Positions 22,560 to 64,000 of a DNA stretch of 64,000 nucleotides are shown here, piece by piece. Position 1 is the stretch's first letter. The number at the start of each line of letters is the position of its first letter. Made by a program: the position numbers and the translations under genes. Below the pieces are notes generated by a model that was not told the DNA's origin, did not search any database, and saw nothing but the letters and a program-made list of their open reading frames with translations. Source of the stretch: Phallusia mammillata (taxonomy: Eukaryota); contig OZ281494.1 in NCBI GenBank assembly GCA_965637545.1, positions 9,548,001-9,612,000 on the forward strand, in the 5' to 3' direction.

Positions 22560-22663
22560 TACCCCCACCCGAATGTATCTCCAGGGGAGCATACATTCTA
22601 AAACACAAAACGTCGTTGAATATATACCGAACAAAACGAACGAAAATGAACATCGCAAACAGT

Positions 22664-28360: not shown

Positions 28361-28419
28361 CTTCGTCGTGATTGCGTTGGTACTAGACAATTGACAGTCG
28401 GCCAGTCGAAAAACTTTTA

Positions 28420-44206: not shown

Positions 44207-47200
44207 ATGATGGCAATTGCGTTCTTTGTTGTTTTTTCTTTATCCTCAATACATCACGGTAAGTGATAAGGAAAACATGCATTTATTCCTTTGAAACTAT
44301 AGGCAAAATCACACTTAAAAAGTATCATGTGACTGATTTTAAAAACACGTACAATTCCGTCTCATAATTTAGAGTAGATTTTTCGACAAGTTAACAGTTG
44401 TGTTGTCTCAAATTATACATGTTTGGTTAAAGATTAGTACCACTTTATACGTCATGGTGTGTTTTATGATTTTTTGACTCAAGCAATCGTGTCAACTTCA
44501 ACTGCCAACTTCAAAGAACAAAAAAAAGACAATGAAATTTCGGGCCAAGTATTCAATTTACTATTATACTCCCAATAATTTTTGAAATATCACAGTGCGG
44601 GGATCCCCTGGAAGAGCAAACTGTCGCGCTGAAGATGGTTTCTTCCGTTGTTTGTACACTGGCGTTTGCATTCCACGTTATAAAGTTCGAAGTTACGGAA
44701 GCGACTGTTGGTTGGGTTCGGTGTCAGATGAAAGCGACGAGGATAGAGGTCAGATCAAGTAAACATTTTACCTAGCGGCTTTAATTGTCTATTCATCACA
44801 ACAACGATAACACATAGGGCAGTATCTTACTTCAAAATGTTAAATTTCAGAACCTTTGAATTGCACCGATGATGAATTTCGATGCCGCTCTCTCCAAAAG
44901 TGTGTACCACGTTATCTTCTCAACACAAAGGAAAGTTGCAAATTAAACGAGGGCTTGATACTTCCATGCCGAAAGCAGACAGGTTGGTTGGTTTGTGGTT
45001 GCTAAACTATAACTTAAAATCTTTTTATATGTTGCCAAGCAACTAACGCTATAATCTCATCATAGAATTCACGTGCAAACGCAGCAAGTTGTGTATTCCA
45101 CGGTGGATGGTGAGGAACGGCAAGCGCGATTGCGACACAATGATAGTGGAGGACGGAAGTGACGAAACAATCACTCTCACCTCATGTGACGTTTCGGAAT
45201 TTCCCTGTTCAAACAACACTTCCTCACCACTACAGTGCATTCCGAGGGCATGGGTTGGAGACGGTGTGAAAGATTGTGCAAATGGAAGGGATGAAATTAC
45301 GAACTTGACAAGTTGTTACAATGACACAGAGTTTCGGTGTAACACAAACGGGCGCTGTTTGGCGCGACATCGAGTGATGAATGATTTTCCTGATTGTCCT
45401 GATGGTTCCGATGAAAAGCAAGCTCTTAAATGCATTCCAGACAAAGAGTTTCGATGCCATGACAACGGTCGTTGCATTCCGCGCTCGTGGCGAGGAAACA
45501 CATTTATGAATTGTAACGATGGAAGCGACGAAATTCCATGGAACGCCAACGAAACTTGCTTTGATGGCGAATTTCGTTGTCACAACGGCAAGCGATGTAT
45601 TCCCATCTACATGCTGTGTGATGGCATGGATCACTGCGGTGACTGCAGCGACGAGATTGAGAGCTGCACTGATCCCAGGATGCTTCGTTGTCCTAACGAG
45701 CCAGGTACGTGTGTGCTTCCCACCTATTCTTGCGATGAATTTGCAGACTGCCCAGGAAATGCCGAGGACGTCCTATATACCACTGGTTTTAAGTGTAACA
45801 AAGTTGTGGCCGGACTTGACCGTACAGTGTACTGCGTTCTGCCTCAATGGTCATTAACCGATGAATATCCGATTTGCAAAGATTCATCAGACTTGTGTTC
45901 TGTCAACGGAACTTTCAGATGCCATCGGTGTTTGTATTCGGACATGATTATTTCACCCAAACAGTTATGTGACGGTATTTTTGACTCCCCTGACCTAACA
46001 GACGAATGTCTTTGCGCCCGAAATGTTCCGGGTTCGGTTTCGTCAATATATCTGTGTGACAATGTGTGCTACGGAGATCCTGGCAACCCTGCTTGTTCGT
46101 TGTGCAGCATAGGGCAAGTAAAATGTGGATTGGAAGACGTATGTATTTCCAAATCACGAGTGTGCGATGGTAAAGTGGATTGTCCTATAACAAAGCTTGA
46201 TGAGCTTTACTGCGGCAGATCAACCAATCAGTACAACCCGGTGAACTCGAAAAATTTTCATTGCGACCCTATTCCACAAGAAATAAGTAAAGTTGTTCAA
46301 ACGCTCTTAACCAAGGATGTCATAAACACCTTAGCTCCTTTGCAAGCTACGAAGTAGGTGGCTTTTTTGTATTACAAGAGAAATATGCATGTTTCATTAA
46401 TGGAGTTTGTTTGCTTTGCTTCAGGTGTAACAATGTTGTGGAGTGTTCAAGATTCGAAGACGAGTGCAGCGAGAGAGCAAATTGCAGTATGAGACATCCA
46501 GTGTGCGACCAAATTCCGATGGGCATGGTAATGTTTTGACTTAAGGGATAATTTCATCCTTCACACTTCCTGTAGTGTGTTCTATTGAAAGACTTTGATT
46601 TGGTTCAAAACGGTACCTAAGTTATAGTTATATGCTGCTTACAATTGTGTTTTGTTGAAACCATGTGTAATACGCAATTTTTTTAGTGGGTTATCTCTGG
46701 ACACTTAGTCGGTGGAGATTTACTTCGAGTGCCAGCACGAATTTGTCAACTACAATTTGGCACCAGTTCCATCCTAGGCTCATCAATTTGCAACGGATTT
46801 GATGAGTGTCAGAAAGGCTACGACGAAGCGACATGTCCAGGTCGCTTTCGATGCGCAGCAGGACAAGTCGAAACCTTGGTGTTTGGTGAGATTTTGTTTA
46901 TCATTCAGACCTGAAAGAGGCTGTAATTGCTTTTAGGATATTAGGCAATGACTTTAATTATTCGTACAAAAGTTGTAGGTCAGGTCGCACTTTTCGGCTC
47001 AGATTCGGGCATTTTTTAACAAACGGGCTTGGTTTGGAACTGACTTCACATTCTGTGTCAGCATTTTCCAATGAAATTACTGAGGTAAATAGCTTAATTG
47101 GACTTAAACCTAATGCTTAACAGAACTAAAACGCCTTGTTTAAGCCATTGCCCATCATTTTACATTGTATATGTGTACTTCATTATTTTCAGTATATACG

Positions 47201-48835
47201 TACTTTTTGTAAGCTTTCAAATATTGGCCTGCCAATCAGTTTTTCAGGCGTCTCGAAAAATAACTTTGGTTTGGGCCGGATTTGGGATAGAATTTCCAGG
47301 TCCAGTGAAACTCTGTTGTATACAATTTCCCCAATCAATCTTTATTGATGGGTCATACTAAAGTCGACTTACTTCGTTCAGGTGTTCGTGATCGTGTAAG
47401 CATTCCAGTCCAGAAAACATGCGACCTGGTCTCCGATTGCATCAACTCCACAGACGAACTTAACTGTTCCGAATCCACACACTTCTACTGCCTTAACAAG
47501 TCACCTCCATTTGTACCAAGAACCAAAGTTCTCGATGGCGTTTCAGACTGCAGCGATTCCTCAGACGAATGTCCTCCGAACTACTTCAAAAACGACGCAC
47601 TTGCCTCAAACGAGCAAATGATCAAAATCCGAACCCTCGAGATCCTGGTTTGGTTTATGGCCGTATTGGCGTTGTTTGGCAACCTTGCAGTAATGGTGAA
47701 CACAGCGGTTTACTTCAAACAAATCAAAATCAATCAATTGCAAAACAAAGTAGGCTTAATCAACAACGCAATGATTTTCAACTTAGCAACAGCTGATCTT
47801 CTCATGGGTATTGTTCTCCTGGTTGTTGGAATCAAGGCAGTAGAGTTTTCAGGGAGTTACTGTCTTTTTGACAAGTTGTGGAGATCTAGTAACTTGTGCA
47901 ACGCAATTGGTGCCATGACAGTGATTTCCAGTGAGACATCAGTGCTTACATTAGTTTGTATCACATCATATCGTCTCTACATTATCTGTAAACCGTTTGA
48001 AACTCGTTGTATCAGGGGCAGAATTGCAATAATGTGGATCTGTATCATTTGGTTTGTCTCCTTTCTTCTTGCTTTGCTTCCACTTTCTACCGTCTTGTCT
48101 GGAAATATGTTAAACAGCGCTCAAATCACGCCTAGTCCTTATTTCTATTCTGATCAAGTGAAACTTACCGACTTCAGGCAATTTGCTCTGCGAATCGCTG
48201 CTTTAGGCAACAAAACTCAGCAAAATATTGAGTCATACAATTGGGACGAACTTAACGCTTATCTAACCTCGGAACAAAGCTCCGTGGCGCCATCCACTGT
48301 CGGTTATTTTGGTTACTACAGCAGCAGTAGCGTTTGCATTCCGCGTCTGTTTCGCATCAGCAAAAACGAATCAGGCGTCAACCCAATGTCGTCCATTGTA
48401 ATCTCGTTCAACTTTGTGGCACTTCTTTACATTGCTTCGTCTTATGTTGCCATTTACATCAAATCGAGTGGCAATGAGGTGACTAAATCCAACAAGGTGA
48501 AGAACAAACAGAATGTGAGCATGCAACGGAAAATCACATTGCTCATAGCAACTGACATGTGCTGCTGGTTACCGATTTGCATCATGACATTTCTTAGTAT
48601 GTCAGGAGTTGTTCTGCCTCCGGCTTCCTATGCAGTTTCAGCAGTGGTTCTCCTGCCCATCAACAGCTCACTCAACCCGATGATTTACAATAACTTTCCA
48701 CAGATGGTCTATTCCAAAATCCGATTTCTTATCAACAAAGCCAGAAGTTGCTTCAATTCTTCGCCATTGCGCAACGCCGTGCATCGGCCATCAGCCGAGC
48801 TTGAAATGCCCAACAAAAATGTCACTAAAGTGTAA
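44207..48835 (+). CDS. Class A GPCR with ~15 LDLa-like repeats and no LRRs, copy A; exons 44207-44258, 44596-44748, 44851-44982, 45066-46353, 46425-46527, 46687-46885, 47382-48835
   Basis: Signal peptide; repeated C..EFRC..GxCIP..xDG..DC.DGSDE modules; 7TM with LALFGN, NLATADLLMG, TDMCCWLPI, LPINSSLNPMIY, similar to LGR/RXFP/GRL101 7TM regions. Junction phases checked by hand. Confidence 0.85.
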
Positions 48836-49578
48836 CCTACAAATTTTTTAACGTAAATTGGCCATAACACCACGAAAGGCAGGTTACTCTTTAGGACTAA
48901 ATTTAGATAGTTGTAGTCTATTAATTATATACGTGGACTACCTTTTGTCTGACGTTTCTGTAAATCAAACCCTTGGGCTGTCAGATGTCAGTAATGCCCT
49001 AAAATTTATAACTTTATGTGAATAAGTGAAACTTTCACCAAGTAAAGCTGTATACGAGTCCCCGCCACTTGACGCTTGTGCAACGATATAGCTAAAGCGT
49101 GCCCTTTTGCTTTTCATCTTTTGCTCATCTGTGCCTTTTTGCTTTTTGCGCTCCTTGCCGTTTAACATTACGCAGCTTTTACCCGCTTGGGTAAATGCTA
49201 TAGCGCGACTGTGCTGCTACGATTTGTTCTACGAGCAAACGAAACTCAAATCAAGCACGTCCTTGAAGGAGTAGAGTGTTAAAAACATGATTTGCAGACA
49301 CAAACTGTTGCTGTTGTGTGTTTTTGTACAGACTGCATGATGTTGCTTACAAGTATGACATGTTTCGTTTGAAACTGAACTTGTTGACTTATTCCAATAG
49401 CGTATTCAAGAATTATGCTTTAATATTTTTACTGAAAAAAATTGTTGTTTGAACATTACTGCCATTTGTCACTTCTTTCAATTACATTGTCGTTTTGCCT
49501 GGACGCAGCGACAAGTTCATTATTTCCGCAACTCTCTCGATGTTAATGTGTTTACTCATTTTCGCAACAGAAAAATTT

Positions 49579-49778
49579 NNNNNNNNNNNNNNNNNNNNNN
49601 NNNNNNNNNNNNNNNNNNNNNNNNNNNNNNNNNNNNNNNNNNNNNNNNNNNNNNNNNNNNNNNNNNNNNNNNNNNNNNNNNNNNNNNNNNNNNNNNNNNN
49701 NNNNNNNNNNNNNNNNNNNNNNNNNNNNNNNNNNNNNNNNNNNNNNNNNNNNNNNNNNNNNNNNNNNNNNNNNNNNNN
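49579..49778. other. Assembly gap (200 N)
   Basis: Run of N. The flanks show it falls inside a tandem duplication, so the true gap is probably several kb. Confidence 1.
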
Positions 49779-51223
49779 CGTGTGAGCATTCCAGTCCAGA
49801 AAACATGCGACTTGATCTCAGATTGCGTCAATTCAACAGACGAACTAAACTGTTCTGAATCCACACACTTCTACTGCCTTAACAAGTCACCTCCATATGT
49901 ACCAAGAACCAAAGTTCTCGATGGCGTTTCGGACTGTAGCGATTCCTCAAGCGAATGTCCTCCAAACTACTTGAAAAACGACGCACTTGCCTCCAACGAG
50001 CAAATGATCAAAATTCGAGCACTTGAGATCCTGGTGTGGTTTATGGCCGTATTGGCGTTGTTTGGCAACCTCGCAGTTATGATAAACACTGCGCTTTACT
50101 TCAAAGAAATCAAATTCAATCAATTGCAAAACAAAGTAGGATTGATCAACAACACAATGATTTTCAACTTAGCAATAGCTGATCTTCTCATGGGTATTGT
50201 TCTTCTGGTTGTTGGAATCAAGGCGGTCGAGTTTTCAGGGAGTTACTGTCTTTTTGACAAATTGTGGAGATCTAGTAACCTGTGCAACGCAATCGGTGCC
50301 ATGACAGTGATTTCAAGTGAGACATCAGTGCTTACATTGCGGTTTGCATCACATCATATCGTCTCTACATCATTTATAAACCTTTCGAAACTCGTTGTAT
50401 CAGGGGCAGAATTGCAATAATGTGGATCTGTATCATCTGGTTTGTCTCATTTCTTCTTGCTTTGCTCCCATTTTCTACCGTCTTGTCTGGAAATATGTTG
50501 ACCAGCGCTCAAATCACACCCAGTCCTTATTTCTATTCTGATCAAGTGAAACTTACCGACTTCCGGCAATTTGCTCTGCGAATCGCTGCTTTGGGCAACA
50601 AAACTCAGCAAAAAATTGAGTCATACAATTGGGACGACCTTAACGCCTATCTAACTTTGGAACAAAGCTCCGTGGCGCCATCTACTGTCGGTTATTTTGG
50701 TTACTACAGCAGCAGCAGCGTATGCATTCCACGTTTGTTTCGCATTAGCAAAAACGAATCCGGCGTCAATCCGATGTCGTCCATTGTAATCTCGTTCAAC
50801 TTTGTGGCACTTCTTTACATCGCCTCGTCTTATGTTGGCATTTACATCAAATCGAGTGGCAACGAGGTGACTAAATCCAACAAGGTGAAGAACAAACAGA
50901 ATGTGAGCATGCAACGGAAAATCACATTGCTCATAGCAACTGACATGTGCTGCTGGTTACCAATTTGCATCATGACATTTCTTAGTATGTCAGGAGTTGT
51001 TCTGCCTCCGGATTCCTATGCAGTTTCGGCAGTGGTTCTCCTGCCCATTAACAGCTCACTCAACCCGATGATTTACAATAACTTTCCACAGATGGTCTAT
51101 TCCAAAATCCGATTTCTTATCAACAAAGCCAGAAGTTGCTTCAATTCCTCGCCATTGCGCAACGCCGTGCATCGGCCATCAGCCGAGCTTGAAATGCCCA
51201 AGAAAAATGTCACTAAAGTGTAA
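49779..51223 (+). pseudogene. LDLa-GPCR copy B, last exon only visible, with a 2-nt insertion frameshift at ~50340
   Basis: Highly similar to 47398-48835. Copy A CTTACATTAGTTTGT corresponds to copy B CTTACATTGCGGTTTGC, which splits the ORF (49449 and 50420 ORFs). The 5' exons presumably lie in the gap. Confidence 0.7.
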
Positions 51224-52297
51224 CCTACAAATTTTTGACGTAAATTGGCCATAACACCACGAAAGGCACGCTACTCTTTAGGACTAAATTTAGATAGTTG
51301 TTGTCTGCTAATTATATACGTGGACTACCTTTGTCTGACGTTTCTGTAAATAAAACCCTTGCGCTGTCAGATGTCAGTGATGCCCTAAAATGTATAACTT
51401 TATGTGGATAAGTGAAACTTTCACCAAGTAAAGCCGTATACGGTCCCCGCCACTTGACGCTTGTGCAACGGTATAGCTAACGCGTGCCCTTTTGCTTTTC
51501 ATCTTTTCCTCATCTGTGCATTTTTGCTGTATGCCCTACTTTCCGTTTAACATTATGCAGCTTTATCCGCTTTGGTAAATGCTATAGCGCGACTGTGCTG
51601 CTACGATTTGTTCAACGAGCAAATGAAACTCAAATCAATGCCGTCCTTGAATGAGTAGAGTGCTAAAAACGGAATTTGCGGACTTTGCTGTTGTGTGTTT
51701 TTGTACAGACTGCAGAATGTAGCGTACAAGTATGACATGTCTTGTTCGAAACTGAAACTTGTTCACTTATTTCAATACCGTACGCAAGAATTATGCTTTA
51801 ATATAATAGACTTCTTCTATTTTCATTGTCGTTTTGCCTGGACGCAGCGATAAGTTCATTATTTTTGTAACTCTGTCGATGTTAATGTGTTTACTCATTT
51901 TCGCAACAGAAAAATTTAGTTGAACCCTCTTTTTTATTTTAAAACCGACCATTGTATTACTGTAATTCTTTTCCTGGAATATGTATGTACTTACAATTTT
52001 ATTAGACGTCGCTTATGTGTTGTGACTAAAACTGCATGATTTACAGCAGTATTACGTTTCCTGGTCATTGTAGGCAATGTGTAATGTACAACGGCATTTG
52101 TTCTCTGTTAAAGCGAACAGAAAATAGTCGCAATCATCTTGTAATATAAAAATACAAAATGGCCGATAAATTTACGCAAAGAAACATGTGACGTTATAAG
52201 ATACCAAGAAACTAAACTGCAATTACACAATTTAAGAAACAATTTTCGTATTAACATTAAGAACCAGTTCGAGTCGTTCGAAAAAATCATTACTTAC

Positions 52298-52345
52298 CCT
52301 TCGACCAAAAAGAGGCAAACAGTAATACAACAAATTGAATTTCAT
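52298..52345 (-). pseudogene. Orphan copy of Ly6 exon 1 carried by the tandem duplication
   Basis: Matches 42617-42665, including the GTAAGT donor, but is 1 nt shorter. No recognisable exon 2 lies downstream; similarity to copy A ends near 52190. Confidence 0.65.
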
Positions 52346-53230
52346 GTTGGAAGTGCGGAAAAAGCTTTAAACCCTGTCTTGTAGAAATCGTTTGTCAAAA
52401 CACAACTTGATCAGCGTTTTAAGAATGGCCACGTGTCGGACGATCACCGCATTTATGCAAAATTATCTCTTTTTCTTTGTTTTGTCATGGGATTTTGGGC
52501 TGGTAGAACGAGAATATATGGTGTTTTACAATGGTTTTGTTTGAGAGGTTGGGAATTTGGATACAATGCTTGCGTCAAACAATGGAAACGATACTCGTAA
52601 AATGTAAATTCAAATCGGTTGTTTAACTCGCAGAAAATCTCTGGTAGTGTGTTATATAGTCCCAAGGTTTTACGGCATTTTTACTGGACTTAAACGAAGT
52701 AATATATTCTTAAGGCAAACGGTCAAACAGCGCACCAAACAGTTCTTTGCATCCTAACTATAGACAATAAGCGTCCTACTTGGAATTTCCCTTGTCATGA
52801 AATTCGGCTCCGCTACTTGACTCTTAATGGTGCTTCATTTCCTTATATAGCTAAGATTAGGTTTACTTTAGGGCTTCTGGTTCGCAAATTTATTAGACTT
52901 GATGAAGTATTTTAGTTGAAAAACCCGAAATAGTTGGGGAAAAGTTTTGTGCTTTAGAAATAAACCTGATACCTAAGGCAGATTTAACTCAAAAAAATCG
53001 ACTATGTCTTGCTGAAGATTGATGCTTGGTTTCTATTCAAGTTCAAAGACGTGTAATAGATCTTTTAGGTTAGAATTAAAGTCACTTTCAGAAACTATGT
53101 ATCAGTTGTGACCAAAATTAGAATTTGTTCATTTATCCCCAAATATGTAAAAATACCACCAGGAAGCTAAATTAAAGTACCATTTTATGTGACACGGTAT
53201 TGTATGATAAACTAAAGTGCATGTAAAAGA

Positions 53231-53282
53231 ATGGTACCATTTGTGCTCTTTGTTGTTCTTTCTTGGATCTCAATACCTCAAG
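53231..53282 (+). CDS. Exon 1 (signal peptide MVPFVLFVVLSWISIPQ) of LDLa-GPCR copy C, whose intron 1 is interrupted by the Polinton
   Basis: 52-nt paralog of 44207-44258 with an AG|GTAAGT donor. The region 52380-53446 aligns with 42700-44414. Confidence 0.75.
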
Positions 53283-53446
53283 GTAAGTGGTAAGGAAAAA
53301 GTGTATACTTATTCTTTTGAAATAAGGTTGGCAAAATTTTACTCATAAACTATCATGCAAATGTAACTGATTTTAGTATTACGTACAATTTCGTCTCACA
53401 CTTCAGATGAGATTTTTCGACAGTTAACGTTCAGTTGTGTCAAATT

Positions 53447-54000
53447 AGTAGTATATATTGTGGCTTTGACCCACCAAGTATGCTCAATTACTTCCGGTCT
53501 AACCCTATAGACGGTTAGACGTCAACCCTAAGTTTAGACCCTTAGTTTAGACGCTAACCCCAACTATAACCCTAACCCTAACGGTAATAACCCTGAGTTT
53601 AGACCCTAACCCTAACTATAACCCTAGTTAAGACCCTAGGTTTAAATGCTAACCCTAGGTTTAGACGGTAATCATTCTAAGTTTAGACTCTGACCCAAAG
53701 TTTAGGAGCTAACCCTAACCCCAACCCTAGTTAAGACCCTAGGTTTAAATGCTAACCCTAACCCTAACCCTAGGTTTAGACGGTAATCATTCTAAGTTTA
53801 GACTCTGACCCAAAGTTTAGGAGCTTCAATCCTAAGGGTAATAACCCTACGTTTAGACGTTAATTTGAGATGCTAATAATTCTAACTATAACCCTTTAGA
53901 GGGTAATGAATGTAATCCTATGGATGATTTTCCTAACTATTTGGTATGTATTAGGTATAACCCTAGGTAGTTTGTTGCCCAGATTGATATAACCCTAAAC
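53447..54000. repeat. Presumed left terminal inverted repeat with degenerate telomere-like (CCCTAA/AACCCT) repeats and an internal ~90-bp duplication
   Basis: Many AACCCT/CCCTAA/TTTAGAC units. 53620-53710 is repeated at ~53725-53826. The right TIR is not in the window, so TIR status is inferred. Confidence 0.7.
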
Positions 54001-54376
54001 GGTAAAAACCGCAAGATTGCATTATCTTTACGTTTGTGGTGAGCTGGCCTCGCTTGCGGAAATTGTTTCCTGAATTGCATTGCTATTGAGGGCAATTGGA
54101 TGGGAACAATTGTACGCTAGGCAATCGTGTTTACCAGGCCCATCAAAGGGCTTGGCGAAGCCAATAATTCGCGCCTGCAGACCTGTTTTCTGACGTAATA
54201 TTGCAAAGACGGTTTTGACGCAGTCAATTGCCAAGCGCTTCGGGGAGAATTTATTCATCGAATAACGTTTGTACAACCAAGTCATTTGCTATATAATTGG
54301 ACGAAAAAGAGTTTACAAAGTCATGCGAAAAAATTGCGATATGTACATGTTGTTGAAAACACAAATGATTGTTTGC

Positions 54377-57300
54377 TCAAAGTTCATTGGGCGCGGTTGA
54401 AATTCCGTCGCCTTGAACAATGCGCTTTCCGTAGAAGTAGGTTAAACCCGACTTGTATTGATTGTACGTATAAATTTCAGAGCGCTTAACCATAAAACCA
54501 ACATTTTTAGTTGTGTGCGATATTTGGGATCTTAAAACATTGAAATAGTTCTCTTTTCTCATTTCATTTTGTCTTCGATTCACCCCTTTGCAAGAAAATT
54601 TTTGACTCGAGTCGCCGAATGCAAAATACGTTTTTGAACACAATGCAACAATGCCATGGCCTTGGAATTCAACTTTCCACAACCCCCCTGACCTACGATC
54701 GTGAGCATATTGTTTTAGACAACAAGGCAGAAGATCCCAGGGAAAGCCCCCTTTCTTTGCTTTCAGGAAGTCATTGAAATGAGCAGGGCAGTACTGGCGC
54801 AAAAACCATTCTCCATACTCGTGGTAAAATTCAGTTAGCATGTGAGCTTTAACACAACTGTCTAAATTATTGCTAGATAAACTAACGTAACACGAGTCCG
54901 TGTCTATTAATACAATTTGATATTTGTTACGTTCAAGGTATTTATCTAGCATGTCATAAACAAATGCCAACAATCTTTGCTTTGCGTAACAAAAGATAAA
55001 AAGCCGATTTGGGAAGGGTAATTGAATTTGCACACAGCCTTTCGGCTTACCACCTGATATAGTCCATTCCCTAAACAATTGATGCTGCTAAAACGACGAT
55101 TGGCCACACACATTGCCGCTTTTGGGGCGTCCACATATTTTATGTTTTTGTGTTTTTCGACGTTCGTTATGGTCCGTCCAAATGCCGAGTTTGTTTGCAG
55201 TTTAGCCAACGTCCCTAAAATCGTGTAGTTCGGAGATGTATCTCCAAGCCTTCTGTCATTTGCTATTTTTTCACCAAAGCCTTCGAAGCAAGCAACAGGT
55301 TTAAATTCGATGAATTGATGAATTTTGTCTACAGTCAAGCCGTGCGTCATGTAAAATTTCACGAGAGGTGAAGTGAGAAATATTTTTGTCCCATGGAAAC
55401 TGCTGATTAACATTCGTCTCGGTTTTTTCAAAATGTTGTGTTTTTCCGCGTATGCTTTCATATGCGGTCCAATGTCATCTCGGCCCACATTTGTATTTTT
55501 GAATATTGGCGGAAACTGAGCGAGCTTGGTTTTCAAATGTTCAGGAGTAGAGATGTCACACTCGACCAAACCAAAAAGTCGATCGTTTTTTATATCAGCG
55601 ATTATTTCGCCTTCCGACATTTTGCCTTTGGTGTTATGAAAAAGATTCAGTTTGTTGAGAAAGTGTTTGACCTGGAAGTCGTTTCTTTTCTGATGTTTCC
55701 AAGCGCATTCCGCCATTTCAATCACCGTGTAACCGAGCGACCGAAGGTAATTGGTGGTTTGTTGAGTGTCTTGTCGTAATTGCCACATGGTCTTCTTCAA
55801 CTTTTTGTTGTAAGTGTCATCTTTGAAATATTTACAACAGCCATGGTAAAAACACCCTGTAGTTCAAGTTCAAAGTGTTAACGATTTCATTTTATAGTTT
55901 GTAAATCACCAAACAAGCAAATTATTTTTTAACTAACAAGGCAAAGCAAACTAAGTTTTAATCTCTGTATTATATAAGAGCAATACCAGGTTTGTTTTGT
56001 TGTTTTTTTCAACAAAGTTTATTTTATATTTCACTACATTTTATTCTAAAATAATGCATTTGGGAAAACACAAAGTTTAGTGAACATGTATAGGACCACC
56101 GTTCGCGCTTGCAACATTGCGGAAATTGTTGGCCTAATTGTATTACCAGAGCCCCATAGCGTGGACAATTTGTTGGAAAACTACCAGCTCGCTTTGTGAC
56201 GTAAACGCTTGCAACACCAAACTTGTAAAGTAAGTTTTTGTTTAATAAAAGCGTTAAACTTGGCACGAAAACGCACCGATCTTTGGATGTTTCCTTGTCC
56301 AAACGAAAAGGAAGTCATTTCTCATTGAACTTTGCAAGTAAATGACTATTTTTATAGTTCAAGGAAACAATTCGCTTACAACATCAAACTAGCATAGTGC
56401 TTTTTTTATGTTTCTTTTTGTTCAATAAATGGATAAAATTTGGCAGGAAAACATCGTTGGATATTTCTATATTTCTACATGTTTTTTCTATATTTCATGG
56501 GAAAAGGAAGTAATTGAAGTTCTGTGGGGGGCCCACATTTTGCTTGCAATTTATAACTCACCGTGAAATTGGTATACATTCCCCGATGACGTATACCCAT
56601 CTACACGAACTCGTTTTGAACCCAAAACAGCTTCTTTGGAGTTGAACTGATGGTAAATCGTCTGACCTGAGCGATGAGATTCCCATTCCAAAAATTCGAC
56701 AGCAATTTGACTGTGATAGTTTCTGAACTCTGGTTTAAACTGGTTATTACGTAGTCGACGAATTCCAAAACCGGTAGGCATTTCCATCATCAGACACTGA
56801 AAAGATTAAACACAAAACATGAGATCGAATTTGGGTCGAATGAAAACAACCCCATATCGATACTTACTTTAGTGTACAAGCTATTTGCGTCGTATCCAAT
56901 CACGGATTGACAAGGTAGTTTTCCATTTTCAAGAGCGCGGATGATTGTGATGCCTCTTTCACAATACCGAGAATGGATTATCGCAGGACCTCCCACAACC
57001 TGATGTCTTATTAGTTCAACCAAGTCCTTGTTTTTTTCACCAAAAAGCATAAAAACTTCCCCGTGTTTTAAATTCCGATACATGATTTTTGCCGTTAGAC
57101 CAGGGATCGATACGGCTTCTTTGAACATGTCGCAATTCTGGGATTTGTACAAATCAAACTGTTTTTGCAACGCTTCCAGAAAGGGTAATACATCCAGCGT
57201 ATTATAATACTCCAAGTAGTCTCGAAGAGATGTCATTCCCTTTTCTTTCCAAACCTAATACAAACACTGTTCTTTAGAAAATTAAAAACAAAATAATTTA

Positions 57301-59406
57301 CATGTTTTTGAAAAACAACTCACGTTTAGGCACTTCTTGTAAGCCTCTTCGGAAATATTGCTTCCTTTAATGTGACTGTAGAATTCTTTATGTGGAGGTA
57401 ATTCTCTTTCCTGGAGACGTTCCAGCGTCGTTATGTATTCATACGGAAACGAAGCTTTCATTTGAGTGCAATCGTAGGCTTTCAAATATTGTTCGTACGA
57501 CGTGCCCGCTGCCAGATAATAGCTGATGTCTAGAAACCGCAGTGACTCTGTACTCAAACACATAAAGCTTTGATCCTTTTTAACAACGCTAATTCTTTGA
57601 CCTTGTTGTTGCAAAGACATGATCAAATACGGTTTGATAAGATTCATATCAAATCGGCCGCCGTTGAAAGTAAAAAAATAATTGCATGAGATGTGTTTCT
57701 AGTTCCCGTCTAATCTGGTACAAGGGCAATTGCTTTACTTCAACAGACTCCTTTAAACTCTGGGCTTGTAAGAGGTCATCAACTTGTTCCAGTAAGCTTT
57801 TATATTTTGGTTGTAGAAGATTGTACGCTTGGTTTGACATTGCAAGCAGGCGATTCGTTAATTTGTCAATCAACCCTTGAGAATTTCCATCCGTCACTTG
57901 AAAATAGGCGTTTTCAAAGCCTGGTATGTTGGAACTTACGCAAAACGACAGCGGTTTGTGTCGTTGCGTGTATTCCGTTTGGATGGTTTTGGACGGCAGA
58001 TTTTCTGAATCCAAATAGCTCTCAAAATCAAAAACGGCGCGAAATTCGTAGAAACGATCTACAACGCTCACATCAATTCCTGCAAATTCCATTTTTTCAA
58101 ACACAGTTTTTGAACATTGATAGGAGCCAGCGGGATACACTTTTTTGACGCTGTTTGTGCATTTTTTCTCATGTCGATTTAATTCATAAAAATTCTTGAA
58201 GTTCGTGCCACAAGACTTGCATGCAAATGAATTGGAAAATTGGTTGAAGTTTCGAATCAGACTAAAATGATTTTCGTACAGATTTAAATTGCAGGTGGGA
58301 TAGGTTTGTTTCATCAACAAAGACGGTGAGCGTTGCACGAGTCTGGAAACCACTTCTCCGTTGAATTTCTTCAGTTCAAAAACCGAAATGTTGATTTTAA
58401 ACAACTGTTCCAAAGCGTAAATATCACAGAGTTGAACACCGGCGAAATCGCCCACTCTTTCACGAGACCAGCGTGAATACAAGTCTATCATTTCCCAGTT
58501 AACTTGCCTGTCCTGAAACCAAAGCTGAAGGCATCGGAAAAAACATAAATTGTCTTTGTGCAAACGACCATGGCTGTTCCGCAGCATACACACGATTGAT
58601 TTGTTGCGGCGGATGTAAGGCGGCAGTTCCGTTACTCGTCCACCAATCAACTGACGTCCACACTTGTAAACATAATATATAATGTTTGTAATAATTTCGA
58701 CGGTGTTTTTGGTGTCAGGTCGTTGCAGTTTTCCGATTTCCAGCAGATCCAACTCTCTGACCATGGCAATAAATCGCTCGACATCCTCGGGGGTATTGAT
58801 TGGAATCGGCTCGTCAATTGCAGGTGTTGCCGAATTAGAATGATAGTAACGTAGTTGTGCAGTTTCTTGATGACGCAGAATGGCACCAACGCTTAAAGAA
58901 ATTTTTGCGCGGTATGGTATTAATTCTAATAAATACTTTCGCAATTGTTCCAAATGATCAAAGTCGTCAAATGTGAAATTAAAACTATCAACTACCGGCT
59001 GCCCTATGTGATGCATTGTTCTAATGGAATCCCAGTGTCTAGAATAAAACTCTTGTAATTCTTCATCTAAGAATATAGGAGCTTCGTCCGTTCCGGCTAT
59101 AATCCGCGGTTGGTCAAAATCTGTTGCAAAAGAATTCTGTTGCGGACGTGACGATATCGGGTGATTTTCGGAAACATGATGCTCCAAATCGTTTAACCGT
59201 GGAAACGAACTATCACAGTATTGACAGCTGTATTTTGGCTGACCGCGACAGGACGTTTTATGACGTTGGACATCGCGCGGGTATCTGAATACTCCATTAC
59301 AATATTCACATGTTGCATGAGCTCTTGCTTCGTGCAGTAGCAAATGAGAGTTTAACAATGCTTCAGTCCGGAAAATCCGAAAGCAATTAGGGCAGCTATA
59401 AGACAT
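54377..59406 (-). CDS. Protein-primed family B DNA polymerase, spliced: exons 59406-57324, 57254-56868, 56796-56562, 55856-54377 (~1394 aa after correcting two 1-nt homopolymer frameshifts)
   Basis: ExoI VFDFES, ExoII FNGGRFD, ExoIII YNTLDV, motif A GYDANSLY, motif B KLQTNSAFG, motif C IDTDS, then SKTY and CKGV. Vsr-like insert VDGY..YQFHGCFYHGC..LGYTVIEMAEC. Three N-terminal C2H2/C2HC-like fingers. AATAAA at 54255-54250. Confidence 0.9.
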
Positions 59407-59549
59407 TGCCTATCGACCTAAATGAAATACAAAATAGGTATGAAATAAATGCATCATATATTGGATGCAGAATACAAGTGTTACATTGTTATACACGTGA
59501 TTATAAGATTACAAGCAATACACATTTGATTGGATGTGAAATGAACACA

Positions 59550-60116
59550 TCAATTGGCTTTGGAGAAAGTCTTTCCCACTTGATTCACTAATTTCAACAC
59601 GGCGTTTTCAGTAGCTTCTTTCCTCTGACAAAAGTCGACCATGAGTTGTTCATCTTCTGAATCTTCTAACCCTGGTGCATTCGCAGCTTGATTTGTTGCC
59701 TCGGCATTGAGCCCACTTGTTCCTGCACTAAGATCATCTTCTTGATTGTAATACGACTCTCCTAAAAGATGTTCGAGGTAGCGCCTCTCAATCTGTCTGA
59801 CTGGTCTGTAAACATGCCTGGTAGGTTTTTCCTTGGTTCTGCATGAGATTAATGTCGCAGGTCGGCGAGAACGGATAAACGGATTCCCTTCGTCGCTATC
59901 TAAATCATACTTTTCCATAAGTCGTTTGCTTTTTGGAGAGAATTCCAACTTTCTCTTGGCTTCAGTCATTTTTTCTTTATCAATTTGGTTTTTGCGTAAT
60001 GTTCTCTTCTTTCGCTCTTTGCGTATTACCTTTTGGTTTTTTTTTAGTTTAGACAATTGTTTCGGACTGTCGCCACTATCACTAATCACTATCGCCTTTG
60101 TTTTGCGGCGCCGCAA
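59550..60116 (-). CDS. Polinton accessory ORF, Lys/Arg-rich then acidic; start unresolved
   Basis: 188-codon open frame with NLS-like basic clusters. It begins at TTG, and the upstream frame is broken by a TAA. No homology recognised. Confidence 0.4.
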   Translation of the reverse strand: MRRRKTKAIVISDSGDSPKQLSKLKKNQKVIRKERKKRTLRKNQIDKEKMTEAKRKLEFSPKSKRLMEKYDLDSDEGNPFIRSRRPATLISCRTKEKPTRHVYRPVRQIERRYLEHLLGESYYNQEDDLSAGTSGLNAEATNQAANAPGLEDSEDEQLMVDFCQRKEATENAVLKLVNQVGKTFSKAN

Positions 60117-60497
60117 ACTTTTGTTCAGCGGTTAAAAATCTTCGTCTGAGTTAAGAATAATATCATTGCTTGCAAGATTCTTTGCCATGATGCTTTTACT
60201 GGGTACAGATTGCACTGAACCGTGGGGATCACTTAAAGGCATGGCATGGGAAAAAATCCACAGCGGCTGGAAACGACGAGAGAGCCTTGCAATTTGCGAC
60301 ATCGTGGTGCAATTGTTTAGGGTTGTTTGAATTGGTCAATTCAGTTTTAATTGCGCAATACATACGTCACTGTATTGCGCCACATGTCGGGACTTGCCTG
60401 CCGAAACCAAAAAACAAACAAAACACGTGTGGTTTTGCGGCAATGCTTAAAAAGGGAGAGGTTTTCATGTCGACCCCGAACATTAAATTGCAACAGC

Positions 60498-61009
60498 ATG
60501 CATCGTCAAGTTCGTTCGGGGAAAACTATTTTCGCTGAAATCACTCGTCGACATGTAGTGGAAGGTAAATGCTTTGTGCTTACCCCGAGGATTGTCAGGG
60601 GAGTGACTGATTGTTTTTTGCAGATACCCGCTTACGCTGTGCAACGCTGAGTGTGCGTTTGGGAAAAGGATTGTACCTCGACTGCGACCAACTGAAACAA
60701 CTCGTAACCTACCTGTTCGAAGGTCTACCATATCTTCTGGCATTTCCGAAATCGGCAAACAACGGCTATTTCCGTGTGCAAATAATTTACTGTTCGGATC
60801 CAAATTCTCAAATCCAGGCCCGTGTTGATGAAATAACGACCGAATCTAAATTAATGAATGCGGAAGTGCTTTTCAAAGAAAACATTCTGTTTGCCCCGGT
60901 GTCATACTTGAAACCTGTTATTTCCAATACATCATGTTATGAATCTCACGCAATCGATTCAAGGGAAATCAAAAATGTAGAAAAACTGTTTCGAGAATCG
61001 CGCCTATAA
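60498..61009 (+). CDS. Polinton ORF of unknown function, two exons (60498-60564, 60624-61009), ~150 aa
   Basis: A 59-nt intron GAAG|GTAAAT...GACTGATTGTTTTTTGCAG|AT (phase 1, branch-like CTGAT) joins MHRQVRSGKTIFAEITRRHVVE to DTRLRCATL... in frame. Confidence 0.55.
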
Positions 61010-61066
61010 AATGGCGATCTAGCTATTTCTTCTTTCATTTTGTGTTCGCTTTGAAAGGATTTTGAC

Positions 61067-61678
61067 ATGTGTGCTCAATTTAAACATCCTTCAACCATTG
61101 TGATATCGGGTCCTAGTCAATCAGGGAAAAGCGTATTCGCATTTAAACTGATACAAAATATAAAACAAGTATTTGATCCCGTTCCGAAAAACATTTATTG
61201 GTTTTACGGTGAATTTCAAGATTCGTTTCGCAATTTTCCCGATGTACAGTTTAAAGAAGGATTAAATGAATTAAATTATCTCAAACAAGATTCTTTGTGT
61301 GTTATCGACGATTTGATGACAGAGTGCAATGAAAAAATCTCTAATCTATTTACCAGGGGATCGCATCATAGAAAGTTGACAGTTGTTTACCTGATTCAAA
61401 ACCTTTTCCACAAGGGCCGCGAGCATAGAACCACATCGTTAAACGCTCATTATATTGTTTTATTTAAAAATCCACGGGATAGTTCTCAAATACAAGTTCT
61501 AGCTCGGCAAATGTATCCGGGCAATACAAAGGCCCTAATCGAAGCGTTTCGCGAATCAACAGGAATTCCTCATGGATATCTATTACTAGACTTGCGTCAA
61601 GAGACACCGGAAAACTTGCGGTTACGCACCGGAGCGTTTCGGGACGAAACCCATTACGTTTACATTCCAAAGACTTAA
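61067..61678 (+). CDS. A32/FtsK-HerA-type DNA packaging ATPase
   Basis: Walker A GPSQSGKS, Walker B CVIDD, then RGSHHRKLTVVYLIQN...SLNAHYIVLFKNPRD, typical of Polinton ATPases. Confidence 0.9.
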   Translation: MCAQFKHPSTIVISGPSQSGKSVFAFKLIQNIKQVFDPVPKNIYWFYGEFQDSFRNFPDVQFKEGLNELNYLKQDSLCVIDDLMTECNEKISNLFTRGSHHRKLTVVYLIQNLFHKGREHRTTSLNAHYIVLFKNPRDSSQIQVLARQMYPGNTKALIEAFRESTGIPHGYLLLDLRQETPENLRLRTGAFRDETHYVYIPKT

Positions 61679-61715
61679 ATTCGAATGCATTTGCGTTTGT
61701 GCGTCATTTTACAGC

Positions 61716-62066
61716 ATGCCGTCGACCTTGATACAAAAACATAAGCAGGCTTTGCAAGCTCTGGCGAAAGGCGACGCAAGAGTTCGTCATTTAATTTTAA
61801 ACGGCTGTGACAAGACTCTGGTGAACTGTTTGAGCGAGTGCGCAGACAATATCCTGCGAGGAAACGTACCGCTAAGTTCCGTTGAAAAGAAACGATTGAA
61901 ACCCTATCGTCAAAAACTTCGTTGTCTCGCCAAAAAACAAACCCCCTTTCTCAAAAAGAAGAAATTGATTAACCAAAAAGGAGGCTTCCTTTCTGCAATT
62001 CTTGTGCCATTATTAGGAAGTGTTTTGCCGAGTCTGGTTGGAGGCATAAGCAAGTTGTTTAAGTGA
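61716..62066 (+). CDS. Small basic Polinton virion-type protein ending QKGG|FLSAILVPLLGS (amphipathic tail)
   Basis: 116 aa. The pattern ECAxNILRGNVPL...KKLRxLA...QKGGFL is recurrent in Polinton/adintovirus small ORFs. The GG|F site resembles an adenain cleavage motif (inference). Confidence 0.7.
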   Translation: MPSTLIQKHKQALQALAKGDARVRHLILNGCDKTLVNCLSECADNILRGNVPLSSVEKKRLKPYRQKLRCLAKKQTPFLKKKKLINQKGGFLSAILVPLLGSVLPSLVGGISKLFK

Positions 62067-62677
62067 TGTCCGTGCAAAAAATGATGCTCATTGACCCACG
62101 CATGTACCGCGATTCGACCACAAAAGTACTATCACGACTTGATGCTGACATGGAACAGATTTTAAATCGGAACGATTTGACGGATCAAGAAAAAATCTCG
62201 CAATACCAGGAAGTGTTGGAAAAGTATTTGCTGTTTCACCAGAAACTCGAGAAGCCCCTGGCACTCCCTATCGTACGCAACCCCGCACCTGCAATTCAAA
62301 ACAAAGCGCTGAAAACGGACAATCTCGCCGAGCAAACAACTCACTCTATAGCAAAGCCATTCGATGACGCAGCGGAAATGATTGTAACAAGCGCGCCCAA
62401 AGCTCTGCAGAAAAAGGCTCGATCACTATTAGATCACTTAAAGCAGAACAACATAAATTGGGACGCGCACAAACAACTGATCTACAATGATCAAGTGATC
62501 ACCGGAAGCAATATCGTCTTGGTTCAAGACGCTCTTCGTAAGCGTAAGAATGTAGATCCAATCGGTTGGAAAACATTTGCTGAAATCCTGAAAGAAACCA
62601 ACACACCCGAATATATCGTCGGAAACAAAGACCGCTTCAATTTTACCAAAACGAATCCAAGTTGGAAAACCTATTAA
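62066..62677 (+). CDS. Conserved Polinton accessory protein of unknown function
   Basis: 203 aa from the ATG. The motif INW...LIYNDQVITGSNIV..LVQDALRKRK...PIGWKTF..IL..N.P..IVGN is seen in Polinton ORFs upstream of integrase. The ATG overlaps the previous stop (TGATG). Confidence 0.7.
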   Translation: MSVQKMMLIDPRMYRDSTTKVLSRLDADMEQILNRNDLTDQEKISQYQEVLEKYLLFHQKLEKPLALPIVRNPAPAIQNKALKTDNLAEQTTHSIAKPFDDAAEMIVTSAPKALQKKARSLLDHLKQNNINWDAHKQLIYNDQVITGSNIVLVQDALRKRKNVDPIGWKTFAEILKETNTPEYIVGNKDRFNFTKTNPSWKTY

Positions 62678-63708
62678 TGGAAAAGATATACTACACACCC
62701 TCTCAGGCGGGGAGTTTGGGCGGCGTTGATGCCTTGCATCGCTACAGCAAACAAAACCGATCCGATGTGAAACAATGGCTTTCAGGAAGCAGGGCTTATA
62801 CCTTGCACAGAACTGCGCGACGTCACTTTCCTCGCAGAAAAGTGGTTGTAGGGGGAATGGGCCAACTCTTTCAAGCCGATCTAATCGATATGAAGCGATT
62901 GGCTCGTTTCAACGATAATGTAAAATTTCTGTTGACCAACATTGATGTTTTTTCAAAGGTGGCGTATGTCATTCCTTTGCGCAATAAAACTTCTAGCTCC
63001 GTGGTGAAAGGCTTTTCCAGCATCCTTGAACAAACAAAGCCTTGCAAACTTCAAACAGACCTTGGCAGTGAATTCATATCAAAACCATTTCAAGCTTTGT
63101 TAAAAAAGCACGGCATTGGTTTTTACAGTACTTTTAACGCCGAGACAAAGGCTTCTGTGGTCGAACGTTTTAATCGCACAATTAAAAGCAAGCTATTTCG
63201 ATACATGACCGCGCAAAACACCCATCGCTATATTGATGTACTTGACGACCTTGTTCACTCCTATAATACATCCTATCATCGTGCAATCGGGCGAGCTCCA
63301 TTGGAAGTAAGTGACTGCAATCAGGAAATTGTCTTCCAGAAACTCTATGGCCATCCTGAACCTTTGACCCGACAACGATTTAAACCGGGTGATGCTGTTA
63401 GAATTTCTAAGTTCAAAAAGGTTTTTGGAAAAGGGTACGTTTCGCAGTGGAGCGAAGAATATTTTCATGTAAAACAGCGGCAGCCCGGCGAACCTCCAAC
63501 TTACACGCTATCAGATCTAAACGGGGAACTCTTGCAGGGGACGTTTTACGAAGCGGAACTGCAAAAAATAACTCCGCCGGAAACATTTCAAATTGAAAAA
63601 ATAATAAAGCGAAGAAGAAATAAATTATACGTTAAATGGAAAGATTATTCGCATGATTTCGATAGTTGGATCCCGGCGTCAAGCGTTCAACATGCCAGTG
63701 GTCACTAA
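62677..63708 (+). CDS. Retroviral-like (c-int) integrase with C-terminal chromodomain
   Basis: FQADLIDM, LTNIDVFSK, LQTDLGSEF, ASVVERFNRTIK (DDE core); C-terminal FQIEKIIKRR..KLYVKWKDYSHDFDSWI chromodomain. The ATG overlaps the previous stop (TAATG). Confidence 0.92.
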   Translation: MEKIYYTPSQAGSLGGVDALHRYSKQNRSDVKQWLSGSRAYTLHRTARRHFPRRKVVVGGMGQLFQADLIDMKRLARFNDNVKFLLTNIDVFSKVAYVIPLRNKTSSSVVKGFSSILEQTKPCKLQTDLGSEFISKPFQALLKKHGIGFYSTFNAETKASVVERFNRTIKSKLFRYMTAQNTHRYIDVLDDLVHSYNTSYHRAIGRAPLEVSDCNQEIVFQKLYGHPEPLTRQRFKPGDAVRISKFKKVFGKGYVSQWSEEYFHVKQRQPGEPPTYTLSDLNGELLQGTFYEAELQKITPPETFQIEKIIKRRRNKLYVKWKDYSHDFDSWIPASSVQHASGH

Positions 63709-63925
63709 GATTTGTGCATCTTCTGGTAAAATTGTCTTCATTTGCCAAATAATTCTAATTTATGGTGTTGTGATTGCCAGCATATTCAATATTTCATCGC
63801 CTCAGCAAACAGAAAAACAGCTTTGGATATCCTTGTTGTCGAGTTGCTTAGGTTACCTGTTACCGAACCCGAAACTGAAGTTCAAAAGGAATGCAGCAAT
63901 TCAACCTAGCCCTGCCGAGCAATAG
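63692..63925 (+). CDS. Small two-helix membrane protein of the Polinton
   Basis: 77 aa with two hydrophobic segments and a WISLLSSCLGYLLPNP motif. It overlaps the end of the integrase. Confidence 0.6.
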   Translation: MPVVTKICASSGKIVFICQIILIYGVVIASIFNISSPQQTEKQLWISLLSSCLGYLLPNPKLKFKRNAAIQPSPAEQ

Positions 63926-64000
63926 CAGCTTGGATTTTTATCCGGATAATACAGTGACAAAATACACCACCCGCTTGCCTAGGTCGTTTGCACTACAAGG
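63891..64000 (+). CDS. N-terminus of a probable minor capsid (penton-like) protein, truncated by the window end
   Basis: MQQFNLALPSNSSLDFYPDNTVTKYTTRLPRSFALQG matches the FxLxLPSNSS..FPxNT..(F/Y)xTxLP..L.G start common to Polinton minor capsid ORFs. Confidence 0.65.
   Translation, partial: MQQFNLALPSNSSLDFYPDNTVTKYTTRLPRSFALQ

Follow-up and report, generated by a model that had tools for sequence, protein, structure and literature searches.

A Polinton DNA polymerase gene interrupted by three introns that are probably spliced from its transcript in Phallusia mammillata

The pPolB polymerase gene of a Polinton in the genome of Phallusia mammillata carries three GT-AG introns that are most probably spliced from its transcript, likely constitutively and by the major spliceosome of the host, and at least intron 1, as well as likely intron 3, appears to predate the split between the family of this element (family A) and its sister family in the same genome (family B). 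We put the probability of this reading at roughly 0.85. The gene lies on the minus strand of a 64,000-nt stretch of DNA (assembly GCA_965637545.1, contig OZ281494.1, positions 9,548,001 to 9,612,000), termed here the window, and is part of a complete 14.1-kb Polinton. The three segments were initially proposed in a sequence-only reading of the window, and a check of the window positions confirmed their ends and lengths. The features of the element are given below in window coordinates; X1, X5 and X6 denote probable RNA runs from three studies, whose RNA status was guessed from coverage and joints.

53447..54322: left terminal inverted repeat (TIR), starting AGTAGT, with a 6-bp target-site duplication before it (53441-53446)
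54377..55856, minus strand: pPolB exon 4, with the remaining Vsr-like domain, motifs B, C (DTDS) and KxY, and the stop
55857..56561, minus strand: intron 3, 705 nt, phase 1, GTGAGT..CTACAG, GC 0.33; joint in X1, X5 and X6
56562..56796, minus strand: pPolB exon 3, first half of the inserted Vsr-like nuclease domain
56797..56867, minus strand: intron 2, 71 nt, phase 0, GTAAGT..TTTCAG, GC 0.35; joint in X1, X5 and X6
56868..57254, minus strand: pPolB exon 2 of 129 codons, spanning the Exo III region through motif A
57255..57323, minus strand: intron 1, 69 nt, phase 0, GTGAGT..TATTAG, GC 0.22; joint in X1 and X6
57324..59406, minus strand: pPolB exon 1 from the ATG, bearing C2H2 zinc fingers as well as the Exo I and Exo II motifs; covered by X1 contigs
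59418..59440, minus strand: possible further splice acceptor (putative), a pyrimidine tract and TAG, 11 nt before the polymerase ATG
59550..60131, minus strand: open frame upstream of the polymerase, 193 codons, without Pfam match
61055..61678, plus strand: packaging-ATPase-like gene with P-loop; weak AAA match below cut-off
62584..63708, plus strand: retroviral-type integrase with chromodomain; Pfam rve, E 4.8e-09, above cut-off
63879..64000, plus strand: start of a 246-codon gene, which from its place in the gene order we take to be the likely minor capsid protein gene
66703-67527: right TIR, past the window end, in window numbering extended along contig C1

The element combines AG-type long TIRs, a 6-bp target-site duplication, pPolB, an integrase and a capsid module with some weakly recognized parts, all of which are Polinton features. 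Its TIRs are about 0.85 kb long and differ by 4 substitutions over 824 aligned columns; such near-identity suggests a recent insertion. The major capsid and protease genes lie past the window end, where the protease matches Peptidase_C5 above the cut-off, and for a 434-aa protein the score is 0.99 against clusters in which 14-30% of the members have a DJR-like domain, the recognition value being sub-threshold. Motifs Exo I, Exo II, A, B, C and KxY were found in the exons of a second family A copy (the C7 copy), in which the Exo III pattern gave no match. The exons taken individually gave no Pfam polymerase match and exon 4 as sole query matched no solved structure; at E<=1e-20, however, exon 4 has matches in 175 longer proteins, and most of the 120 listed carry PF03175. 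Among the matches listed, the nearest named relatives come from molluscs, echinoderms, amphioxus and a sea anemone (39-45% identity). Some database proteins start near an exon boundary.

The literature consulted, Repbase entries aside, presents the core genes of Polintons as intronless (PMC8097293), in line with the sequence-only reading, which took pPolB genes of Polintons to be usually single long ORFs. This is a descriptive and not a formal trait of the group, and the pPolB gene with its three spliced introns departs from it. The nine further genes compared with family B showed no intron; eight of these (132-374 codons) are single colinear matches to family B, and the family A capsid gene consists of a single open frame.

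All three donors score 6/6 against the GTRAGT-type consensus, as had been claimed for them, and 5-9 pyrimidines per 11 nt precede the acceptors, thus the GT-AG and GTRAGT features of a U2-type spliceosomal intron are present. Introns of 69 and 71 nt are too short for self-splicing ribozyme introns of group I or II. Their "host-like" size refers to a comparison with one putative host intron (46354-46424, 71 nt), read by eye in a neighbouring gene. The GC content of exons is 0.40-0.42, versus 0.22-0.35 in the introns. Intron 2 sits directly 3' of motif A, and intron 3 lies in the Vsr-like motif HGCxxH, where it splits the codon for glycine. Measured on the C7 copy, the excess over an intronless profile equals the length of each intron. 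On read-through a stop is met within each intron or at most 5 nt beyond it, which supports the proposed dependence of the polymerase on host splicing.

Evidence for splicing comes from the runs. Joints across introns 2 and 3 occur in all three probable RNA runs and across intron 1 in two, with X1 and X6 joining at all three introns and X5 at two. A skip of 71 nt is present in X1, X5 and X6, and one of 69 nt in X1 and X6; the third skip was read in all three runs as 706 nt with one letter between, that is the 705-nt intron and a substitution beside the acceptor, which is common to the C7 copy. The transcript letters are those of the C7 copy at all 35 places tested. X12, a DNA-like run, has cover in every one of the 30 bins of the element and zero joints, while X1, X5 and X6 cover just the polymerase and the integrase in a transcript-like manner, X1 contigs covering the integrase partly and without joints. 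The region 59811-62394 is without RNA cover and carries no information on expression there. One may ask if the joined contigs stem from an intronless DNA copy, either a free virus or a processed copy, since the run type is guessed. This is very improbable: the runs leave most of the element uncovered, the breaks fall exactly at GT-AG, the letters follow the C7 copy, the joined form is missing from X12, and no intronless family A copy was found in the assembly. The earlier view of the segments as real spliceosomal introns is thus borne out by the joins in probable RNA contigs.

It was also proposed that intron retention gates replication. As a regulated switch, retention would keep most cells from making the polymerase and replication would be licensed by splicing in certain cells, and the stops met on read-through would suit such a role. 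The possible extra acceptor before the ATG likewise hints at more complex 5' splicing; an X1 contig ends by it, at 59419, no joint was seen there, and an acceptor-like site also precedes the polymerase ATG of family B. However, no retained-intron contig was seen among X1, X5 and X6, from three studies, and none in the middle of intron 3, so that the splicing gate is unsupported. The X1 depth in the bins of intron 1 (12.2) and intron 2 (12.1), against 15.5, is what full splicing predicts. The 6/6 donors also argue against a switch, consensus donors being typical of constitutive introns. The run data are assembled contigs, which give no reading of strand, level or rare isoforms, and since contigs lose rare forms some retention is still possible, but a switch is unlikely and constitutive splicing is the preferred reading.

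Two family A copies were found, such counts being lower bounds. The C7 copy is 97.9% identical to the window copy, has its own, different 6-bp target-site duplication and TIRs of 926 bp that start AGTAGT and are 100% identical, and keeps all three introns. All six intron ends are kept between the copies, and intron 3 has 5 indels (676 nt in the C7 copy versus 705 nt in the window copy). The claim that removal of the introns restores the reading frame stands for the C7 copy, the exons of which sum to 4,185 nt, i.e., 1,394 codons and a stop in one frame, and fails for the window copy, which has two extra frameshifts, near 57.7 kb (exon 1) and near 55.0 kb (exon 4), both absent from the C7 copy. 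X1, X5 and X12 span both places and differ there from the window copy; X6 spans neither. In exons 1, 2 and 4 the two copies differ by 27 synonymous and 23 non-synonymous changes, which are few and mixed with decay of the window copy. The window copy is young and likely disabled, and it is not of the transcribed type.

The frameshifts of the window copy might suggest that the segments are recent introners or random insertions in a decaying copy, all the more since introners were already reported in dinoflagellate Polinton-like viruses (PMC12166617, as far as the available part of that report goes). Yet introners are expected as many similar copies with terminal repeats, and intron 3, searched separately, had no genome match outside the two family A elements, whereas introns 1 and 2 were searched only as parts of a 2-kb query. 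Terminal inverted repeats were looked for in the intron DNA and none was found, and the comparison of nine introns gave no meaningful likeness, just 18-23-nt AT-rich matches. Moreover, the positions are common to a family at 50% protein identity and the joins are seen in transcripts. A recent origin of this kind is scarcely credible; an ancient introner origin of the segments is possible.

The age of the introns is indicated by family B, of which the same genome contains three copies bounded by TIRs, with a separate 6-bp duplication for each. Families A and B have 50-51% identity in exons 2 and 4, and three separate trees place them as sisters (0.95, 0.995 and 1.0; SH-aLRT 96 and 99.9). At position 1, family B has a GTAAGT..TTTAG intron (154 and 104 nt) at the same position and phase as intron 1 of family A. 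At position 3 it has an AT-rich insert starting with GT (129 and 112 nt), which is a candidate intron only, because it ends in AT and not AG in the three copies keeping that end. Intron 2 is absent from family B and known only in family A. Since two positions recur in a distant sister family, the introns are, judged from sequence, likely old, and conservation of the intron position was found for intron 1, with the insert at position 3 pointing the same way.

Among 80 metagenomic relatives, 12 have strong GT-AG introns and 39 have one open frame. Weak GT-AG fits were left uncounted (L074, L104, L121 and L127, and second weak fits in L061, L077 and L115), their donors scoring 2-4 and the fits being approximate or pyrimidine-poor. 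A first metagenome scan with exon 4 gave no relative, nor did viral contigs by any single exon or alignment. Two relatives have an intron exactly at position 3, within the Vsr-like nuclease motif. The best trees contain no clade uniting the phase-1 position-3 carriers; a single clade of them was unrejected by AU tests (p 0.215 and 0.242) that took 36 of 67 and 32 of 49 rows. A profile of the domains of 16 relatives matches E. coli Vsr (1vsr, E 1.9e-07), Pfam Vsr being recognized in 9 of the 16, and the window family aligns across the same profile positions, with the Vsr-like domain inserted after motif A.

Intron sites cluster among the relatives: in the Vsr-like motif three distinct sites fall inside a 7-nt stretch, and at motif B two fall inside 4 nt. 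It is known that group I introns break recognition sites of homing endonucleases, and by analogy introns might gather at conserved motifs as they break sites recognized by nucleases of competing elements, which the presence of a Vsr-like nuclease in the polymerase itself would fit. Glycine codons, however, are classic intron-insertion sites and abound here (59 well-conserved columns), sliding of one old intron would give the same clusters, and sequence-specific cutting by the Vsr-like domain is putative, so that such immunity is improbable.

For the preferred reading, RNA polymerase II of the host would transcribe the element in the nucleus. Because Polinton replication goes from DNA to DNA without passing through RNA, an intron once gained would never be purged and would travel with every new copy. 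The introns would most likely be tolerated passengers or mild expression aids rather than a switch. A tentative extension, compatible with this reading, is that the introns make the longest gene host-like and thus aid export or help it escape the silencing of long intronless transcripts. They occur only in the 4.2-kb polymerase, the other genes being intronless as compared. In the parts of these sources available, long intronless transgenes in human cells are protected from HUSH silencing when an intron is inserted (PMC8770142), and an integrated giant virus of an alga shows an enrichment of spliceosomal introns in its latency genes (10.64898/2026.10.09.758095). Against it, families with single intronless frames of 1,324-1,347 codons coexist in the same genome, nearly half of the metagenomic relatives have one open frame, exon 1 is still 2.1 kb long, and a longer gene is a larger target for intron gain.

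Several known systems resemble the element described here. It is like vertebrate and nematode Mavericks/Polintons (adintovirus-like; Eupolintoviridae) in its 14-kb size, AGTAGT TIRs, 6-bp duplication, pPolB, rve integrase, ATPase, C5 protease and double-jelly-roll capsid, and unlike them in the spliced polymerase. The protein-primed polymerase of adenovirus, which is related, is likewise made from a spliced nuclear transcript (E2B mRNA); there a short leader is spliced onto a single long coding exon, whereas here introns interrupt the catalytic region. A Vsr-like domain within pPolB was described for Polintons of marine nematodes and molluscs, where the available text mentions no spliceosomal intron (10.1101/2023.08.22.554363). 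Dinoflagellate eupolintoviral proviruses also have intron-type insertions in full-length Polinton-like elements, but these are, according to the available part of the source, young, multi-copy transposon insertions, about 25% of them in coding regions and of unclear intactness (PMC12166617), while those of the animal element are single-copy, position-conserved and joined out in transcripts. Punuivirus of Chlamydomonas has host-type GT-AG introns in integrated virus genes, checked by RNA-seq; it belongs to another virus group and host, and as far as that source could be consulted its introns lie in 61 of 506 genes and are latency-enriched, in contrast to the replicative polymerase of a 14-kb element (10.64898/2026.10.09.758095). 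Ginger1 is a DNA transposon whose key gene has 1-4 position-conserved introns, one with non-canonical ends, yet it is a cut-and-paste element with a single transposase and no polymerase or capsid (PMC2836005).

Intact Mavericks were defined through intronless open reading frames, with GeneWise "introns" taken as decay (PMC8097293), and prokaryotic gene callers were used since such viruses were taken as intron-free (PMC10120064). These published criteria support the earlier warning that ORF-based screens would call the gene fragmented: surveys of this kind would misfile a working, transcript-supported, mobile, intron-split polymerase as a fossil. It is conceivable, though doubtful, that intron-bearing Polintons are old, widespread and largely hidden in animal Polinton diversity, the intron in the Vsr motif being ancestral, shared across distant hosts, lost or slid elsewhere, and kept since splicing licenses host-like expression of the polymerase. 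If true, the numbers of intact versus fossil Polintons in the literature would be systematically wrong, and such lineages would be bound to the nucleus and the spliceosome for their replication and would not be parasites of cytoplasmic giant viruses. The relatives with introns at recurrent sites make Polintons tractable for studies of intron gain, loss and sliding. The introns described here provide direct sequence evidence that this lineage uses the nucleus and spliceosome of its host to express its replicase, a point that matters for where and how animal Polintons replicate.

Three spliceosomal introns, numbered 5' to 3', interrupt the Polinton DNA polymerase gene (pPolB; 54377..59406, minus strand), and the window sequence bore out on that strand the ends and lengths proposed by the sequence-only reading:

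57323-57255, minus strand: intron 1 of pPolB, 69 nt, donor GTGAGT, acceptor AG
56867-56797, minus strand: intron 2 of pPolB, 71 nt, donor GTAAGT, acceptor AG
56561-55857, minus strand: intron 3 of pPolB, 705 nt, donor GTGAGT, acceptor AG

Their GC content is 0.22-0.35, against 0.40-0.42 in the exons of this copy, and the exons directly adjoin, with no gap, when aligned to an intronless 1,347-codon family of the same genome. Intron 1 lies ahead of the Exo III region and intron 2 after motif A, while intron 3 falls inside a glycine codon, that of the HGCxxH motif in an inserted nuclease domain. This domain matches E. coli Vsr (E 1.9e-07, profile built from 16 relatives), Pfam Vsr was found in the inserted domains of 9 of these 16 relatives, and a pPolB with a VSR domain is known from the part consulted of an earlier report (10.1101/2023.08.22.554363). 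That the introns give nuclease immunity is very improbable. Read-through of each intron meets a stop within it or at most 5 nt past it; therefore the polymerase cannot be synthesized without splicing. It is plausible, though less likely than not, that the introns serve as an expression licence; in human cells, placing introns in long intronless transgenes counteracts their silencing by HUSH (PMC8770142). Two more frameshifts in the window copy, at ~57.7 kb and ~55.0 kb, had been overlooked in the first reading.

The host element is a 14.1-kb Polinton, which extends from 53447 to 3.5 kb past the window end, has terminal inverted repeats (TIRs) beginning AGTAGT and is flanked by a 6-bp target-site duplication. 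It encodes an rve integrase, a C5 protease, an ATPase-like protein (weak match) and, likely, a double-jelly-roll capsid protein. Searching the genome at the DNA level revealed one further copy of this family (family A), on contig C7, that is 97.9% identical and has identical 926-bp TIRs, a different target-site duplication and pPolB exons in open frames. Sister copies lacking conserved GT/AG ends had been named as evidence against introns; the opposite was seen, as the C7 copy keeps all three with unchanged ends (69, 71 and 676 nt), and five indels between the copies lie in intron 3. The TIR pair of the window copy differs by 4 substitutions in 824 columns and that of the C7 copy is identical, therefore both insertions are young; since two separately inserted copies carry the same introns, the element transposed with introns in place. 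The other nine Polinton genes show no intron-sized gap relative to the sister family B, except breaks in the family B capsid copies. Telomere-like, TAACCC-rich degenerate repeats within the TIR (53520-53915) are the site of most inter-copy indels. The Polinton is embedded among tandemly arrayed host LDL-receptor-repeat/7-TM receptor genes (42500-53450 and past the window end), where a paralogous empty site (~44200-44540) matches both flanks. A 200-N assembly gap (49579-49778) falls within a 2.4-kb tandem duplication of a receptor gene, possibly an assembly artefact. Elsewhere in the window, a BEL/Pao LTR retrotransposon (21933-28719) has a single 1,932-codon frame and LTRs identical across the 300 nt compared, so its insertion is recent.

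Of 16 sequencing runs listed, none was recorded as RNA and 14 were guessed to be; four were compared, namely the RNA-like X1, X5 and X6, from three different studies, and the DNA-like X12. The junction check proposed from sequence came out in favour of splicing: introns 2 and 3 are joined across by assembled contigs in 3/3 RNA-like runs and intron 1 by contigs of X1 and X6, and X12, with all 30 bins covered, has no joint at any pPolB intron. The third joint registers as a skip of 706 plus a single intervening letter; this is an acceptor-adjacent substitution common to the C7 copy, so intron 3 measures 705 nt. The contigs carry the C7 letter at 35/35 differences tested among those listed (five alignment-dependent rows beside an indel omitted; 64 more rows beyond the listing), thus the transcript comes from a C7-type copy and not from the frameshifted window copy. 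Over 54320-64000, X12 has almost solely C7-type letters across the element, so the sample behind this run may lack the window insertion or carry it only rarely.

Depth is zero in the middle of intron 3 in X1, X5 and X6, and in the intron 1 and 2 bins of X1 it equals the value expected under full splicing; the contig data are uninformative on strand, level and rare isoforms. The suggestion that intron retention gates replication is not supported by these depths, and retention acting as a switch is unlikely. Constitutive splicing is the likeliest mode (probability about 0.85). Host polymerase II would transcribe the Polinton in the nucleus, the major spliceosome would remove the three introns, and they would persist because Polinton replication goes from DNA to DNA. 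Both families have an acceptor-like site just 5' of the polymerase ATG (59418-59440, minus strand; near 2655 in the family B copy L029), where an X1 contig stops exactly, and the 5' leader is possibly spliced. Such a site lies within 30 nt of the guessed ATG in 6/35 loci, against a 4.5% background, the loci being non-independent and two of the six being families A and B.

Protein searches of the genome for pPolB gave 20 and 27 matches. The nearest, family B, is 50-51% identical across exons 2 and 4, has three TIR-bounded copies, each with its own 6-bp duplication, and is sister to family A in three trees from separate natural stretches. It has an intron exactly at position 1 (GTAAGT..TTTAG, 154 and 104 nt), lacks intron 2, and is interrupted exactly at position 3 by an AT-rich insert, 129 or 112 nt long, with a GT start and an AT end. 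This insert (L029:5547-5675; L030:5570-5681; L047 near 5755) begins GTAAAT, and in each of the three copies still possessing its far end that end is AT rather than AG; inside the insert, upstream of that end, is an out-of-frame CTAAT..TTTCAG. The 129 nt of L029 are in frame and stop-free, and the 112 nt of L030 shift the frame. The insert may be a non-canonical intron, or its acceptor may have been lost ahead of the spread of family B. Contig C3 of the same genome holds a cluster of many decayed pPolB fragments (~10-18 Mb).

The intron survey took in 80 metagenomic relatives, the best of 252, picked via the exon 2 region and hence biased against introns there. A single open frame was found in 39/80, including L065 with an in-frame intron, and 12/80 (9 once near-identical loci are merged) have at least one intron with a donor score of 5-6 of 6. 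No relative has an intron at position 1 (79/79 covering loci continuous), and none was called at position 2 (77/80 continuous). At position 3, 58/78 are continuous. The identical base is interrupted by a phase-1 intron in L061 and L126; in L111 and L115 a phase-2 intron falls within the same codon, and in L094 an intron lies 7 nt upstream. By rough odds, chance would give an exact match in <1% of cases with uniformly distributed sites (11 distinct sites, 3 of family A, ~4,000 positions), and in ~7% if insertion prefers phase-1 glycine codons (4 such sites; 59 glycine columns being conserved). In the best trees L061 and L126 stand apart from A+B, and AU tests did not reject a single clade of phase-1 position-3 carriers (p 0.215 and 0.242); the sharing may reflect one old intron or an insertion hotspot. 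A second hotspot lies at motif B, at phase 0 in five loci and at phase 1, 4 nt further, in three (L076, L077, L081, L082, L090, L065, L111, L115). L115, 97% identical to L111, is the most intron-rich relative surveyed: its pPolB has seven GT-AG introns, each 74-100 nt long, and has one intron site near profile position 106 in common with L093 and another, at motif B, with L065.

An introner (transposon-made) origin left no sign: intron 3 has no match elsewhere in the genome, a search for terminal repeats in it found none, and nine introns compared have only short AT-rich matches in common. Literature searches turned up no paper that describes spliceosomal introns at conserved positions in the polymerase of an animal Polinton. 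In the parts consulted, intact vertebrate Mavericks are without introns, 'intact' being defined via intronless ORFs (PMC8097293), Polinton core genes are intronless and cargo genes intron-bearing (10.1101/2022.07.12.499685), and gene calling assumes the absence of introns (PMC10120064; 10.1101/2022.05.02.489867). Introners are described in the consulted parts for dinoflagellate elements (PMC12166617), group I introns for protist PLVs (PMC12220804), and introns for an integrated giant virus (10.64898/2026.10.09.758095) and Ginger elements (PMC2836005); the portions seen of PMC8502044, PMC11296320, 10.64898/2026.07.28.741278 and PMC5718144 held nothing relevant. The pPolB introns are real, are supported by transcripts and belong to a genuine Polinton, and such an intron-split polymerase bears on the counting of Polintons and on how they are expressed.
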